A stretch of 64,000 bases of DNA from an uncultured Lentisphaerales bacterium (GCA_964553035.1 CAZKJH010000003.1:767-64766); one strand, 5' to 3'. Numbered from the stretch's first letter, positions 5,363 through 43,135 are shown. The notes: generated by a model from the sequence alone, not told the origin. Made by a program: numbers and translations.

Positions 5363-6106
5363 ATGGCACAAGAAATCAAAGTCATCGCGGAACCGCGCAC
5401 GTGCAGCGGATCCACGGCCGCACGCCGTTTGCGCCGCTCAGGCGTCATCCCGGCAGTGCTCGCCACCACAGGCGGAGAAACCGCACTCATCCAGCTCAGC
5501 GCCCACGACTTCGAGCGCGTGATGAGCCAGCACGCAAGCACACAGCTCCTCGTTAGCCTAACGGTTGGCGACAAAACATGCCTCGCACTTTTGCGCGAAA
5601 TACAGCGCAACGGTATAACAGGCCGCGTGAGCCATGCCGATTTCGGTGAAATCGACGCTACCCGCAAGATCCACGTCAAAATCAAGATTGTCCTTGATGG
5701 CGAACCGGAAGGCGTACGCAGCCAGAACGGCGTTCTCGAGCAGCACATGCGCTTCGTTGAAGTTTCCTGCCTGCCAGCGGATATTGTGGAAAGCTTTACC
5801 GTTAACACGGCGGCACTCAAACTCGGCGAGGATATCACGGTCGCAGAGCTCACCCTCGGAGACCGCTACACGCTCGTTTCCCATAGCGATAACATCGTGG
5901 CAACGGTTTCAGCAGTAGCCGCCGAAGAGATAGCCCCTGTAGCAGCCGAAGGTGCCGAGGCTCAGCCTGCACTCAGCGCAAAGAAAGGCAAAGCCGAAGA
6001 GGCAGGGGCCGCTGCTCCTGCGGCGGGAGCCAAGCCTGCGGCGGGAGCCAAACCTGCGGCGGGAGCCAAGCCTGCAGCAGCAGCCAAACCTGCGGCCAAA
6101 AAATAA
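5363..6106 (+). CDS. ctc: 50S ribosomal protein L25 / general stress protein Ctc, with a low-complexity C-terminal (A/K/P) repeat tail
   Basis: Gene position prs-ctc-pth. L25 beta-barrel region. Tail AGAKPAAGAKPAAGAKPAAAAKPAAKK encoded by 18-nt tandem DNA repeats. Confidence 0.75.
   Translation: MAQEIKVIAEPRTCSGSTAARRLRRSGVIPAVLATTGGETALIQLSAHDFERVMSQHASTQLLVSLTVGDKTCLALLREIQRNGITGRVSHADFGEIDATRKIHVKIKIVLDGEPEGVRSQNGVLEQHMRFVEVSCLPADIVESFTVNTAALKLGEDITVAELTLGDRYTLVSHSDNIVATVSAVAAEEIAPVAAEGAEAQPALSAKKGKAEEAGAAAPAAGAKPAAGAKPAAGAKPAAAAKPAAKK
6020..6090 (+). repeat. 18-nt tandem repeats (GCGGGAGCCAARCCTGCG x3) encoding the AGAKPA repeats of the L25 tail
   Basis: Read directly within the ctc 3' end. 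Confidence 0.85.
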
Positions 6107-6150: not shown

Positions 6151-6831
6151 GTGAAGATGATTGCAGGACTAGGCAACCCAGGCCGCGACTACGAAGGAAC
6201 ACCACACAACGTGGGCTTCGTTGCCGTCGACTCGATTTGCCAGTCGCTCGGAGGAGACTGGCGCATTGAACCGCGCTTTAAGGCGGATGTCGCCAAAGTC
6301 TCTAACGATGGCCAATCGCTCCTGCTGGTCAAGCCCATGACGTACATGAACGCCAGCGGCGAGGCCATCGGACAGATCATGCGCTACTACCGTATGACGC
6401 CCGAAGAAATCATCGTGATCTCCGACGACGTTAACCTGCTGCCAGGACGCATTCGTGTCCGCGCGACAGGAAGCGCCGGAGGTCATAACGGACTAAAGTC
6501 CACAATCGAACATCTGAGTTCACAGCAGTTCACACGCATTCGAATCGGTGTGGGACTTGGCAAAAGTGAATCCGGAACCCTAATAGGCCATGTGCTCGGG
6601 CGCATTGCGAATGAAGATGCTGAAGGCGTTGCCAACGGAATCAAGACGGCAGCCGAAGCGGCACTTTTCGCAGCACACGATGGCACGGAGGCGGCGATGA
6701 ACCATTACAATGTATCGTCGACGCCCCAGCCCTCGGGAGAAGAAGAGCCTGCGGACAAGCGGAACACAACTAACAACGATAAAACCAAACAGCTTAACAA
6801 CAAGGAACATGAACATGCCCAGGAAATATGA
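6151..6831 (+). CDS. pth: Peptidyl-tRNA hydrolase with ~35-aa C-terminal extension
   Basis: MIAGLGNPGRDYEGTPHNVGF and HNGLKS motifs of Pth. Extension is rich in N/K/E/T. It overlaps the rpsF start by ~17 nt. Confidence 0.85.
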   Translation: MKMIAGLGNPGRDYEGTPHNVGFVAVDSICQSLGGDWRIEPRFKADVAKVSNDGQSLLLVKPMTYMNASGEAIGQIMRYYRMTPEEIIVISDDVNLLPGRIRVRATGSAGGHNGLKSTIEHLSSQQFTRIRIGVGLGKSESGTLIGHVLGRIANEDAEGVANGIKTAAEAALFAAHDGTEAAMNHYNVSSTPQPSGEEEPADKRNTTNNDKTKQLNNKEHEHAQEI

Positions 6832-12197: not shown

Positions 12198-12227
12198 AGT
12201 AGCGAGTAGCGAGTAGCGAGTAGCGAG
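12198..12227. repeat. Heptanucleotide microsatellite (AGTAGCG) x4 in the recC upstream / rpoC downstream intergenic region
   Basis: GCAGTAGCGAGTAGCGAGTAGCGAGTAGCGAG read directly. Confidence 0.9.
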
Positions 12228-39502: not shown

Positions 39503-39886
39503 TTTTTGGAATTGGGTTTTTGACAAGATTGCAATACCCACTCCACTAAGCTTCTTGTTCTTCTCGCCCTTCCGGTTAAAAACCCTTCGCCACTCACCTC
39601 AGCCTCCTCTGCACATTAAACAATTCGTATAATCCGTGTTTAATCCGTGAATCACGATGCACGCCCCTCGCTTTAGCTGCTCTAAAATACCACCCGAAAA
39701 GCCAAGCTACGTTTAAACCGAAAGTATTACTTTACATTTAGACGTCCTAAGCGCCAAAAAACTCACGTCATCCGGAATTAAAATTGAACTTTAATTTTGC
39801 ATAATTTCATTTATATCATTGGATGTAAGTACTTTACCATGTAATACTTTTTATAAATAGCGTTTATTTTCACTAACTTTTATGCA

Positions 39887-39909
39887 AAATTAAAATTGAA
39901 TTTTAATTT
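39887..39909. promoter_or_regulatory. Perfect 23-bp AT-rich palindrome AAATTAAAATTGAATTTTAATTT, ~50 bp upstream of the ATPase gene (putative operator)
   Basis: 11-bp arms around a central G. A related copy ATTAAAATTGAACTTTAATTTT sits at ~39777-39800. Confidence 0.4.
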
Positions 39910-39955
39910 CGCGTATTTTATGGTATGATATTTTCACTTCACAAGGAGACCGTCA

Positions 39956-41140
39956 ATGATCTATCGAAATATTACTCCTCATCTGGAAAAACTCGCTACC
40001 TTGTTCCCAGTTGTTACGATCCTCGGGCCTCGGCAGTCGGGAAAGACAACGCTGGCGCGTATGACATTCAAAAACTATTCATACGCCAACCTCGAATTGC
40101 CGCCGGTGCGGCAGCTTGCACGCGAAGACCCACAAACTTTTTTTGTTAACTTTCCGGCCCCCTTGATCATCGATGAAGTCCAACATGCCCCTGAGTTGCT
40201 GAGCTATATTCAGGTTTTCGTTGACGAGCACAAAGCGCGTGGGCAATACATTTTGACGGGATCACATCAGCCACTCCTTCAGGCAAAAGTCACCCAGTCG
40301 CTGGCAGGACGTACCGCCTTGCTGACACTGCTCCCACTCTCTTTGCCCGAACTTGCCAATGCTGGATTTTCAATGGACAGGGACGAGTGGCTATTTAAAG
40401 GATTCATGCCCAGGATTTATGATGAGTCAATTCCGCCGACATTGCTCTATGAGAACTACTACCGGACCTACGTCGAACGAGACGTCCGGCAACTCATCAA
40501 CGTGAAAGATCAAAATGCTTTTGAAACGTTCGTACGCTTTCTCGCAGGGCGTGTGGGGCAGGTGGTCAATCTCGAAAGCATGTCCAACGACATCGGCGTC
40601 TCGTCCCCCACCTTGGCCGCATGGCTTTCCGTGCTCGAAGCGAGTTATATCGTTTTCAAGCTCCATCCCTATTACAACAATTTCGGGAAACGACTGATCA
40701 AATCCCCAAAAATCTACTTCACGGATGTGGGTCTGGCGTCGTACCTGCTTCGAATTGAAAATCGTGATCAAATCGCTCGGGATCCGCTTATCGGAGGCCT
40801 TTTCGAGAATCTTGTCGTACTCGAGGCACTCAAGGCACGTTACAATGCAGGGCTTTCTCCTGATTTATATTACTTCAGGGATAGCAGTGGACTTGAGATC
40901 AACTTGATTCTGGATCAGGCACGCCAACTACACGCCTTCGAAATCAAATCGTCCAGGACGTGGAACTCAGCATTCGGAAAGAATATGGGGAAATTCCGTG
41001 AAAGAATTTCCAGCCTTCTTTCATCCACAGTTATCTATTCAGGTGAGCCCATAGCTGGCAGCGAAAGCCGCCCCTCATGCGTCCACTTCACTAACACAGC
41101 AAGCCTGTTTGTCAAGACGCCAGAAAGCGTTGGGCCTTAG
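39956..41140 (+). CDS. AAA+ superfamily ATPase of the COG1373 / AAA_14 + DUF4143 type
   Basis: Walker A GPRQSGKTT, Walker B LIIDEVQ, C-terminal KIYFTDVGL. AAGGAG SD. Sits in a low-GC island. Confidence 0.8.
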   Translation: MIYRNITPHLEKLATLFPVVTILGPRQSGKTTLARMTFKNYSYANLELPPVRQLAREDPQTFFVNFPAPLIIDEVQHAPELLSYIQVFVDEHKARGQYILTGSHQPLLQAKVTQSLAGRTALLTLLPLSLPELANAGFSMDRDEWLFKGFMPRIYDESIPPTLLYENYYRTYVERDVRQLINVKDQNAFETFVRFLAGRVGQVVNLESMSNDIGVSSPTLAAWLSVLEASYIVFKLHPYYNNFGKRLIKSPKIYFTDVGLASYLLRIENRDQIARDPLIGGLFENLVVLEALKARYNAGLSPDLYYFRDSSGLEINLILDQARQLHAFEIKSSRTWNSAFGKNMGKFRERISSLLSSTVIYSGEPIAGSESRPSCVHFTNTASLFVKTPESVGP

Positions 41141-41163
41141 ATAAGATTATAGCAGCGCCATTC

Positions 41164-41404
41164 CCTGTGGCAAAGTGGACACCCTGCCACAGGCATCTCC
41201 GCATCCGCACCACACGCCGAGCGGCTGGGTGGCAGCCTCATCTCGTATTGTAATCTCGACATTTAGTTCAAGATTACGGTGGCGTAATTGCCTGTGGCAA
41301 AGTGGACACCCTGCCACAGGCATCTCCGCATCCGCACCACACGCCGAGCGGCTGGGTGGCAGCCTCATCTCGTATTGTAATCTCGACATTTAGTTCAAGA
41401 TTAT
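41164..41404. repeat. Tandem duplication, 2 x ~127 bp (114 bp identical per unit), each unit with a 9-bp-stem hairpin CCTGTGGCA...TGCCACAGG and a GGCTG...CAGCC hairpin
   Basis: Direct sequence identity between 41164-41277 and 41291-41404. This explains the duplicated peptides in minus-strand ORFs 41147-41389 and 41274-41618. Confidence 0.85.
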
Positions 41405-41425
41405 AATGACGAGATTGCTTGTGTC

Positions 41426-41942
41426 CATAATCGGTCAGCCATCGGGGGGATGGGTGAAAGTATTTTGCGGGGGTGACGCCTGAGATCTGCTCTGCTGTGC
41501 TATCAACCCAGTTGTCGCAATAAGCGCGGTGCGGTTTTAAACACAGAGAGTTGGAGACACAGAGATTGAGCCACTGGGAGCGATATGCTTCCAGCCTGTG
41601 CAAACGACAAACAGGCAAGATGCCTGTTCTCCCAGTAGGGCAACATTTTTCTGTCCACCCATTTTTCTGTCCCTCTCTACACTAAAACAAGGGGCATATC
41701 TCTAGAAATCCCCGATACCGATTTTTCGTTTTGGATCCCGATACCGATACCGATTTCGATTACAGACGCGGAGGTCTGCATCGCTCCAGTTTTCTAGTAA
41801 AACAAGAGACAGGCGTCTAGAAATTGCGGCCAATCAGGAGATTGGCTCTCCTATTCCCATCCCTCTGTGCCTCAAACTCTCTGTGTTTAAAACCCAAACC
41901 CCATTACCCACATACTTGCCCCCGGTCACTGACCGATTACGA
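41426..41942. repeat. Non-coding element with nested inverted repeats (MITE-like or structured-RNA candidate)
   Basis: Outer IR TAATCGGTCAG...CGGGGG at 41426-41450 pairs with 41916-41942. Inner perfect 20-bp IR GGTTTTAAACACAGAGAGTT at 41533-41552 pairs with 41878-41897. Internal short repeats TCTAGAAAT x2, ATTTTTCTGTCC x2, CCGATACCGAT x2. Confidence 0.7.
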
Positions 41943-41989
41943 GTTTCATCTGAAAAACACTTGTCTTCTCGAGAACGAATGGTTATGCT

Positions 41990-43135
41990 TTGGATCACCT
42001 CTATATGATGGAGGCTGATACAAAGGACGGCTATGACGAAGGGAGATTATTGATGAATCGACGCGCTATTATTGGTGATCTTGTGTTGCCAGACCGCATC
42101 CTGCGAGGTGGAGCGGTCGTTATTGCAGACGGCGTTATCGAATACGCAGGCCCGGCGGACAGCGTTGCGTTGCCCGACAACCAGATTCGAACGGGCGGGC
42201 GGCTCGTGGCACCGGGCTTTGTTGACATTCATTGTCATGCGGGAGCTGGAGTTATGTCGCACGATGATCCCGCTGCCGTGGCAGCGTATCACCGCCGCCA
42301 CGGAACGACGGGATTGCTGCTTTCGTTTTATCGTAATCTCTCAAATGACCAAGTGCTGGAAGGGTTACGGAAAATCGCGGCATGTCAGGCACCGAATGTG
42401 TTGGGCGTTCACATGGAGGGGCCATACCTTAACCCGGAATACGGAGCCAGAAAGCAGCCATTTTCGTCTGTTGATCCGGTTTTTTATCGTCAGGTCATCA
42501 ATTCCGGGCTTGTTCGTCAATGGACTTATGCTCCGGAAATGCCTGGCACTTCTGCCTTTGCACGCGAAATTGCGGCGGCAGGCATCGTGCCTGCAATCGG
42601 CCATAGTGCGGCTTCGCCTGCCGAAGTGGATCAGGCGGTCTGTGACGGTGCCCGCATCGTTACACATTTGATGAACGCCACGGGTTGCAGTATATCACCA
42701 ACGCGCTACGGTGGAACGATCGAGGTCTCGTTTGATCTCGCGGCGATGCGCCATGACAAGATGTTCTTCGAGGTTATCTTCGACCGTGAGGGTATACACG
42801 TCCGGCGCGAGATGATCGAATTCATTCTGAAGACGGCTGGGGTAGATTTTGTGGTGGGTATTACGGATTGTGCGGCGGGTGGACTAGATGTCGATGACGG
42901 CCGGGATGTGATCGGCGAGGGTCGCGCATTGTCCGGTACCCGATTGACAATGAGCGGTGTGGCACGCAACTTCCTTTCGCTTGGTATGCCGCTTCAAGAT
43001 GTCTTTAAGATTGTCGCGCTCAATCCCGCGCGTGCGATTGGAATGGATGATCGTGTTGGGAGTCTGGCGCAAGGTCGGCGCGCTGACCTCCTGTTGATTG
43101 ATGCCGAATTAAATAAAGTAGAGGTGGTTACCTGA
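41990..43135 (+). CDS. nagA: N-acetylglucosamine-6-phosphate deacetylase-like amidohydrolase
   Basis: GFVDIHCHAG metal-binding motif, GVHMEGPYLNPE, and IGHSAASPAEVDQAVCDGARIVTHLMNA match NagA blocks. True start may be the internal Met at ~42053. Confidence 0.7.
   Translation: MDHLYMMEADTKDGYDEGRLLMNRRAIIGDLVLPDRILRGGAVVIADGVIEYAGPADSVALPDNQIRTGGRLVAPGFVDIHCHAGAGVMSHDDPAAVAAYHRRHGTTGLLLSFYRNLSNDQVLEGLRKIAACQAPNVLGVHMEGPYLNPEYGARKQPFSSVDPVFYRQVINSGLVRQWTYAPEMPGTSAFAREIAAAGIVPAIGHSAASPAEVDQAVCDGARIVTHLMNATGCSISPTRYGGTIEVSFDLAAMRHDKMFFEVIFDREGIHVRREMIEFILKTAGVDFVVGITDCAAGGLDVDDGRDVIGEGRALSGTRLTMSGVARNFLSLGMPLQDVFKIVALNPARAIGMDDRVGSLAQGRRADLLLIDAELNKVEVVT

Follow-up and report, generated by a model that had tools for sequence, protein, structure and literature searches.

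Upstream of a gene for a NagA-like amidohydrolase in an uncultured Lentisphaerales bacterium lies about half a kilobase of DNA in which one inverted repeat is enclosed by another. The locus is part of a 64,000-nt stretch of sequence, referred to here as the window, and it raises the question of whether such nested palindromes mark a small mobile element, the closing stems of a large structured RNA or some other kind of repeat. A preliminary description, made from the window alone, had favored a miniature inverted-repeat transposable element (MITE), with structured RNA as the alternative. Here we compare the window copy with its relatives in other genomes and weigh these readings against one another.

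Genomic setting

The element follows a DUF4143/AAA_14 ATPase gene on the plus strand (positions 39956-41140) and a 127-bp tandem repeat of 2.2 copies, 94% identical, which occupies positions 41143-41423 and holds the hairpin CCTGTGGCAAAGTGGACACCCTGCCACAGG in each unit; its placement directly after these two features in the preliminary description was accurate. A link between the element and the adjoining tandem repeat was considered and rejected, since the tandem repeat is absent from all copies of the element in the related MAG described below. On the other side, 113 nt separate the element from the NagA-like gene, for which a start at 42053 is likely because close homologues are 358 amino acids in length. 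No effect of the element on this gene or on other neighbors was demonstrated.

Directly upstream of the ATPase gene is a stretch of 28% GC (39503-39955) that contains another 32-nt inverted repeat, 91% complementary (39773-39804 and 39880-39911). The ATPase may perhaps lie on a separately acquired segment between a radical-SAM gene and nagA. Elsewhere in the window, near the end of an open reading frame (ORF), positions 6017-6096 hold an 18-nt tandem repeat of 4.4 copies (CCTGCGGCGGGAGCCAAA) that is Pro/Ala/Gly/Lys-rich and apparently coding.

Repeats within the window copy

As had been described, a perfect 20-mer, GGTTTTAAACACAGAGAGTT, is present at 41533-41552 on the plus strand and at 41875-41894 on the minus strand. 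These are its only two matches in the 64 kb when three mismatches are allowed, and none of 100 shuffled sequences gave a match. The repeat extends to 32 nt with 94% complementarity, its left arm at 41533-41564 (plus strand) and its right arm at 41863-41894 (minus strand) being 298 nt apart. Each arm is composed of two tandem 16-nt units (GTTTTAAACACAGAGA and GTTGGAGACACAGAGA), with ACACAGAGA in every unit. Outside this inner repeat lies the imperfect outer repeat that had also been noted (41428-41448 and 41919-41939), in which 18 of 21 nt (86%) are complementary; with three mismatches allowed, it has two matches in the 64-kb window, against 0.02 expected.

The short internal direct repeats that had been pointed out were all located: CATTTTTCTGTCC occurs twice, at 41644 and 41660; repeats of the CCGATACCGAT type, CCGATA(C), lie at 41711-41756; and an imperfect direct pair of 27 nt containing TCTAGAAAT is found at 41683 and 41798. 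The inner repeat, the outer repeat and the internal direct repeats are not expected by chance. Searches of the 64-kb window with the 20-mer (three mismatches allowed), the 21-mer outer repeat and a 12-mer of the terminus, together with a whole-window repeat scan, revealed no extra copies.

The earlier view that the interval has no ORF longer than 64 codons requires amendment, since positions 41274-41618 hold a TTG-initiated minus-strand ORF of 114 codons that passes over the left edge of the element into the tandem repeat. Several further ORFs of 41 to 54 codons are present. That the interval is noncoding nevertheless agrees with the finding that none of the scanned ORFs, of 114, 64 and 51 codons, matched a Pfam family.

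Dispersed copies in a related genome

The 18-mer GGTTTTAAACACAGAGAG, which forms the tip of the inner repeat, was scanned over one genome per bacterial and archaeal species (596 Gb). Thirty loci were found, 21 of which (23 exact matches on 20 contigs) belong to a single MAG, CAZUAY01, named "uncultured Lentisphaerales bacterium SRP294416_co3_591." The other nine are single matches in unrelated genomes, where by our own estimate (both strands, 4^18) about 17 would be expected by chance. CAZUAY01 encodes the closest NagA homologue found (92% amino acid identity and 87.9% DNA identity) and is therefore a close relative of the window organism, probably congeneric with it. The many copies that characterize a MITE are present in this MAG in unrelated gene contexts: the copies occupy unrelated intergenic sites, in both orientations relative to their neighbors, which include genes for lysyl-tRNA synthetase, an ABC transporter ATPase, obgE, a tRNA, RNase P RNA and a DeoR regulator, and no consistent orientation toward neighboring genes was seen. 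Retrieval by an exact 18-mer within the inner repeat inflates the apparent conservation of that repeat.

At least 10 contigs of the MAG carry the 18-mer less than 200 nt from a contig end, the loci having been read as 8-kb contig tiles. For the window organism, Logan short-read contigs, assigned by proteins identical to the window ATPase and NagA, stop at position 41193, within the 127-bp tandem repeat, and restart at 41911. If k is 31 for Logan, the restart lies 30 nt (k - 1) before unique sequence resumes at about 41941, where the element ends. The matches at contig ends and the Logan breaks constitute the signature of an assembly-breaking repeat. The case for multiple copies in the window's own genome is indirect and rests on these breaks; multiple copies were shown directly only in the congeneric MAG. 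Some of the mosaic copies described below could in principle be misjoins in a short-read MAG.

BLASTN in its distant mode found no similar sequence among plasmid and phage records, and viral contigs (IMG/VR) lacked the 18-mer and gave only two solitary matches to the outer arm. The latter, at positions 3867-3887 of L051 and 77-97 of L052, are identical to each other (GTAATCGGTCAGTGACAGGGGT) and lie in sequence with no other similarity to the element. A scan of JGI metagenomes with the 20-mer returned four loci (L043 to L046). Two of these, L043 and L044, were rejected as family copies, being a chance match in a coding region that is also found in a Chlorobiaceae genome (L020), and the other two, L045 and L046, are related to the family through the inner repeat alone. 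A search of the literature found no description of such repeats in Lentisphaerota.

Ends of the element

BLASTN similarity between the window and the MAG copies starts at window position 41428 in six loci (L006, L010, L013, L019, L022 and L029) and stops at 41939-41943 in five (L009, L018, L023, L028 and L031). Because these sharp, shared boundaries (41427/8 and 41939/40) coincide with the outer repeat, it is this repeat that forms the terminus, and the perfect 20-mer is internal; the emphasis first placed on the 20-mer as the flanking end was thus mistaken. The inner repeat is likewise internal to the family because its outer flanks are conserved among copies: an alignment of the copies anchored on the 18-mer showed its outer 40 nt to be as well conserved as the inner sequence (left, ...GCTATCAACCCAGTTGTCGCAATAAGCGCGGTGC; right, ...CAAACCCCATTACCCACATACTTGCCCCCGGTCACTGACC).

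The termini are therefore the two arms of the 21- to 22-nt outer inverted repeat, (G)TAATCGGTCAG...CTGACCGATTAC. The left terminal inverted repeat, ATAATCGGTCAGCCATCGGGGG, lies at 41427-41448 on the plus strand, the family consensus beginning with G; the right one lies at 41919-41940 on the minus strand, where it reads GTAATCGGTCAGTGACCGGGGG, and it contains the 13-nt palindrome CGGTCACTGACCG. Over all collected family ends, the terminal consensus is GTAATCGGTCAG. GTAATCGG is the reading at the right end of the window copy and at almost every MAG end, and the left end of the window copy reads ATAATCGG or, with a longer reading, ATAATCGGTCAG. By comparison of copies, the whole element, one copy of a dispersed repeat family, occupies positions 41427-41940 (plus strand; 514 bp), so that the interval first outlined (41426-41942) was of about the right size but slightly too wide at both ends. 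In being small and noncoding (514 bp, with scanned ORFs that match no Pfam family) and in having inverted repeats at the boundaries that its copies share, the element has the build of a MITE.

Modular structure of the copies

Comparison with the MAG loci divides the window copy (plus strand throughout) into a conserved left module of about 190 bp (41427-41620), with up to 14 overlapping matches among these loci; a variable middle (41621-41820), which holds the short direct repeats and is lost or replaced in several copies; and a conserved right module of about 120 bp (41820-41940), with up to seven or eight overlapping matches. Similarity to the right module begins at 41798-41828 in L023, L018, L009, L031 and L003. 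At the junction of the left module and the middle there is a small hairpin, ACAGGCA-AGA-TGCCTGT (41611-41627, plus strand), which is the point of divergence or the site of an extra module in several copies; L013, L024 and L006 diverge from the window past ...ACAGGCAAG.

The copies differ widely in size, from 514 bp in the window and 457 bp in L022 to about 235 bp in L038, 150 bp in L025 and about 1.2 kb in L028. L025, L038, L003/L011 and L028 have lost the middle region or carry other sequence in its place, and in L022 the replacement is partial. L003/L011 is without the equivalent of window positions 41650-41822 and has an additional module of about 140 nt, L038 no longer has the right terminus or one of the 16-nt units, and L013 carries the left module twice in tandem, together with other repeated modules. 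L012 and L032 are solitary ends or fragments that adjoin housekeeping genes; the ORFs beside them were considered as an autonomous partner and were set aside as such genes.

The 1.1-kb interior of L028 (MAG contig CAZUAY010000375) has no long ORF and matches group II intron domain V/VI at 2415-2517 (Rfam RF00029; 42.6 bits, against a gathering score of 40), so that an ORF-less group II intron remnant, at about 1794-2517, probably lies inside this copy. A 5' end of the GTGTG type is located a few nucleotides past the arm of the inner repeat in the same locus.

The longest repeat common to the MAG loci is about 270 bp, and no retrieved copy therefore carries a multicopy transposase gene. Neither the window nor about 150 kb of sequence from the MAG loci contained an autonomous copy or a transposase; insertion sequence (IS) copies probably went unassembled.

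Solitary palindromes and the case for a REP-like origin

The two termini also occur back to back, without the rest of the element, as a perfect palindrome of 40 bp, GTAATCGGTCAGGCACAGGGGGCTGTGCCTGACCGATTAC, which is possibly an independent REP-like unit. It was found at no fewer than six sites in the MAG loci (L004 5457, L018 5793, L019 195, L021 389, and L024 292 and 4219), where it is usually followed by (AGTCGCT)n heptamer arrays; the window contains no such arms-only palindrome. An intergenic heptamer array, (AGTAGCG) x 4.3, followed by a hairpin, is present at window positions 12198-12227 and is of the same kind as the AGTCGCT and GAATTAC arrays that flank solo palindromes in the MAG.

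It can be envisioned that the family is REP/REPIN-like, that is, that the approximately 40-bp hairpin GTAATCGGTCAGGCACAGGGGGCTGTGCCTGACCGATTAC is the mobile unit, spread without target duplication by a transposase of the RAYT type (HUH, Y1) that acts on hairpins in single-stranded DNA, and that the 514-bp copy represents modules inserted in its loop. The presence in the MAG of at least six exact arms-only palindromes, short, extragenic and in high copy number, accords with this explanation, as does the lack of a consistent target duplication. A large copy in L006 has a heptamer array beyond its left end, which a "filled" hairpin would be expected to show, and the element in its entirety folds into a nested hairpin (-95.5 kcal/mol as DNA; z = -7.4). 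The arms-only palindrome is, however, equally well explained by maximal internal deletion of a MITE. Described REPINs are several times shorter than 514 bp, and REP ends have a free 5' tetranucleotide of the GTAG type; the GTAA head of the present family lies inside the stem. Furthermore, in most large copies the arms are noncomplementary in the 5 nt beside the loop (CCATC versus TGACC), and large copies are therefore not simply a perfect hairpin that was split. No RAYT gene was seen in the window or in the MAG loci that were read. We consider a REP-like origin of the family unlikely.

The inner repeat as the end of a second element

Another explanation is that of two elements, one inside the other: an inner one, with the 32-nt GGTTTTAAACACAGAGAG... 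repeats as its ends, would have entered an outer repeat of greater age, and the two would then have spread together. An inner arm with an outside flank unlike that of the family is carried by the JGI contigs L045 and L046, in the latter with 32 of 33 nt identical, the tandem 16-nt units included, and a composite is conceivable because the arm occurs in these unrelated contigs beside different flanks. The conserved sequence in L045 and L046 nevertheless again reaches beyond the repeat. Two 16-nt units per arm give four symmetric sites, as in many transposon ends. Among the MAG copies retrieved, none has the inner repeat as its only boundary, and no uninterrupted outer junction was found among loci retrieved with a seed in the inner repeat, which could not have brought up such a junction.

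In two Chloroflexota genomes the 18-mer is followed by more (C)ACAGAG-like iterations, which would favor a nested inner element, but by our own estimate chance alone would produce this many matches to an 18-mer. The loci concerned (L005, 725-770, and L030, 7640-7840) come from Chloroflexota/Dehalococcoidia MAGs; L030 has two copies of a repeat of about 100 bp that ends in CTCTGTG(T/C)TTAAA(A)CC. These sequences may be distantly related to the inner repeat or may match it by chance. On balance, the nested composite seems very unlikely.

The family might also be a hierarchical palindromic system rather than a plain MITE. The 40-bp hairpin with its heptamer arrays would spread alone and also serve as a landing pad in whose loop modules accumulate, among them an independently occurring element bounded by four 16-nt ACACAGAGA sites and, in one copy, a group II intron. 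In our judgment, this system as a whole is distinctly unlikely.

Structured RNA and invertible promoter

A large RNA closed by the terminal stem had been put forward as the alternative to a MITE, and a long inverted repeat around some 300 bp directly upstream of a gene might also suggest a phase-variable promoter, inverted between the 32-nt repeats, that acts on the nagA-like gene. The strong predicted fold and the greater conservation of the element than of orthologous nagA between the two species are in keeping with these readings. Strong folding (here z = -7.4) is nonetheless expected of any pair of long inverted repeats. At an E value of up to 1, Rfam returned no family save a chance miRNA match in the adjoining tandem repeat, and none was found for the element in 11 related loci at an E value of up to 0.1. 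A large RNA would require the middle segment, but this part is dispensable, as shown by its loss or replacement in other copies.

Compensatory changes, which covariance analysis of homologous loci had been recommended to reveal, were not seen: differences between arms were one-sided in all seven copies compared, which make up a small sample of young copies. At position 21 of the inner repeat, a G/T mismatch is present in five of five copies that have both arms, and it is therefore inherited and uncompensated; in L025, position 3 of both termini has undergone independent, noncompensating changes. These results, together with the Rfam searches and the dispensable middle, speak against the structured RNA that had been proposed.

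No sigma-70-like promoter on the plus strand and no terminator were found in the element, its copies have no fixed orientation toward neighboring genes, and no recombinase gene adjoins it. The orientation of the interior relative to the flanks is the same in the four alignable copies (the window, L022, L019 and L003/L011); with no inverted copy among them, the invertible promoter was rejected. Taken together, an RNA gene or an inverton appears highly improbable.

Divergence, target sites and gene order

Eleven copies that cover most of the left module are 81 to 97% identical to the window. Mean identity over this module is 93.5% between the window and the MAG copies and 90.5% among the MAG copies themselves, a star-like pattern, and the DNA identity of the orthologous nagA coding sequences (87.9%) falls below both means. 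It follows that the family was spread or exchanged after the species split or that a master copy was conserved.

The flanks of the window copy (TTGTGTCC versus GAGTTTCA) show no target site duplication. In L022 and L025 there are offset direct 6-nt matches (CGTGTC and AAAAAC, respectively), displaced by 1 to 3 nt, and the flanks of L022 match in 7 of 8 positions only with an offset of 1 nt; L019 has no such match. A TA duplication of the IS630/Tc1-like kind was considered and set aside: the base before TA is G at nearly all ends, so that GTA seems to be part of the element, and a "TA" duplication is inseparable from the inverted repeat itself. The two signs of a MITE that had been suggested for examination therefore gave different answers, in that further copies were abundant (23 matches on 20 MAG contigs) and the window copy had no duplication. 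The MITE proposed at the outset is upheld in its essentials, in that the element is noncoding, bounded by inverted repeats and multicopy in the congeneric MAG; no convincing target site duplication was found.

Two loci could be compared between genomes. At nagA, the MAG orthologue is preceded by mutS and then 89 bp, without the element, and similarity between the window and the MAG starts at window position 42002 (L035 5950), 62 nt beyond the right end of the element. Three further candidates for the orthologous nagA site (P0002, P0004 and P0006) were rejected, each being a nagA paralogue from another operon. The 150-bp copy (L025) is found at obgE in the MAG, and the element is absent from this position in the window organism and in a third species. 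L025 is similar to L049, a probable contig of the window organism that belongs to its sample series, over 4.3 kb (85.5%), as far as L025 position 6791, 3 nt short of the terminus at 6794. L049 and the third species (L050) have a common, ancestral obgE gene order without the element, and beyond the MAG copy the sequence is unrelated. In L050 (GCA_036681025.1), the 9-mer GTAATCGGG, a terminal motif of the family, is present upstream of obgE at about 2925-2935, where the MAG carries the element; this motif may be a footprint, or its position may be due to chance.

Neither comparison provided an empty site with both flanks alignable, the far flank being nonhomologous in each. Gene order differs at both loci (mutS-nagA versus ATPase-element-nagA, and the region upstream of obgE, at L025 6791/L049 2975), and in both a family copy lies at or near the breakpoint. 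The location of copies at gene order breaks fits recombination between dispersed copies.

Discussion

In this study, we asked what kind of sequence lies between the tandem repeat and the nagA-like gene, and we consider it probable that positions 41427-41940 are one copy of a small, noncoding, interspersed MITE-like family with inverted ends, carried by an uncultured Lentisphaerales lineage. The element is most likely of the ordinary kind of small nonautonomous mobile element, rather than a structured RNA gene. We postulate that, most likely, a transposase that binds the 22-nt termini would mobilize it in trans, by either a cut-and-paste or a copy-out mechanism. The inner 32-nt repeat would then be a set of subterminal protein-binding sites or, alternatively, the ends of a second, nested element. 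After dispersal, copies may have decayed independently, with middle segments being lost, swapped or gained, and they may have become substrates for recombination, which would explain the copies at gene order breaks.

MITE- and REP-like repeats are common, and one more family carries little weight for biology at large. The present one is nevertheless an undescribed repeat family from a poorly studied lineage of the PVC group. It explains the fragmentation of short-read assemblies and MAGs in this Lentisphaerales lineage, here and at many loci, it marks differences in gene order between close relatives (nagA and obgE), and it is a possible strain marker. If the hierarchical system outlined above were the true one, the 93.5% identity of the left module, compared with 87.9% for nagA, would indicate recent interspecies transfer or selection on a function at the DNA or RNA level. 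A hairpin that takes up cargo would be a modestly interesting variation in the growth of REP-like elements.

Bacterial MITEs include the Correia/NEMIS elements of Neisseria and the RUP elements of Streptococcus pneumoniae. Like these, the MITE-like family described here is small and noncoding, has terminal inverted repeats and is dispersed in tens of intergenic copies; it likewise shows size variants produced by internal deletion, breaks short-read assemblies and coincides with points of rearrangement. Unlike typical MITEs, it has a second long inverted repeat, about 105 nt (left) and about 45 nt (right) inside the termini, and its copies are unusually modular. It further differs in that no target duplication was demonstrated and in that no parent IS was found in the searched loci.

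The terminal repeat starts with GTAA-N-CG and in this respect resembles the ends of the IS66 family, which start with GTAA (GTAAGCGTCCGG..., GTAACCGTCCGG... and GTAACTGCTCAGCA); for one member, ISDge4, with the end GTAACTGCTCAGCA, an 8-bp direct repeat has been reported (PMC12888890, PMC12898284). The likeness is limited to the terminal 6 or 7 bases, the window copy lacks the 8-bp direct repeat, to which L022 and L025 show no more than an approximation, and neither the window nor some 150 kb of sequence from the MAG loci yielded an IS66 transposase. Since the 8-bp repeat was not seen here, the IS66 family provides a lead rather than a classification.

The resemblance to proteobacterial REP/REPIN sequences and BIMEs lies in a short, perfect, extragenic palindrome of high copy number and, for BIMEs, in its combination with other short motifs into mosaics. 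The family differs from REP/REPIN sequences in the 514-bp length of the window copy, in the arms of large copies, which are mostly imperfect near the loop, and in its occurrence in a PVC-group rather than a proteobacterial lineage; no RAYT was identified in the loci searched. A REP/RAYT-type mechanism is still worth considering because of the arms-only palindrome and the missing duplications. With respect to the STRR heptamers of cyanobacteria, the heptamer sequence and the phylum are different, and the window copy has no adjoining heptamer array; the likeness is in the intergenic tandem arrays of AGTCGCT, GAATTAC and AGTAGCG, which lie beside palindromes in the Lentisphaerales genomes studied here.
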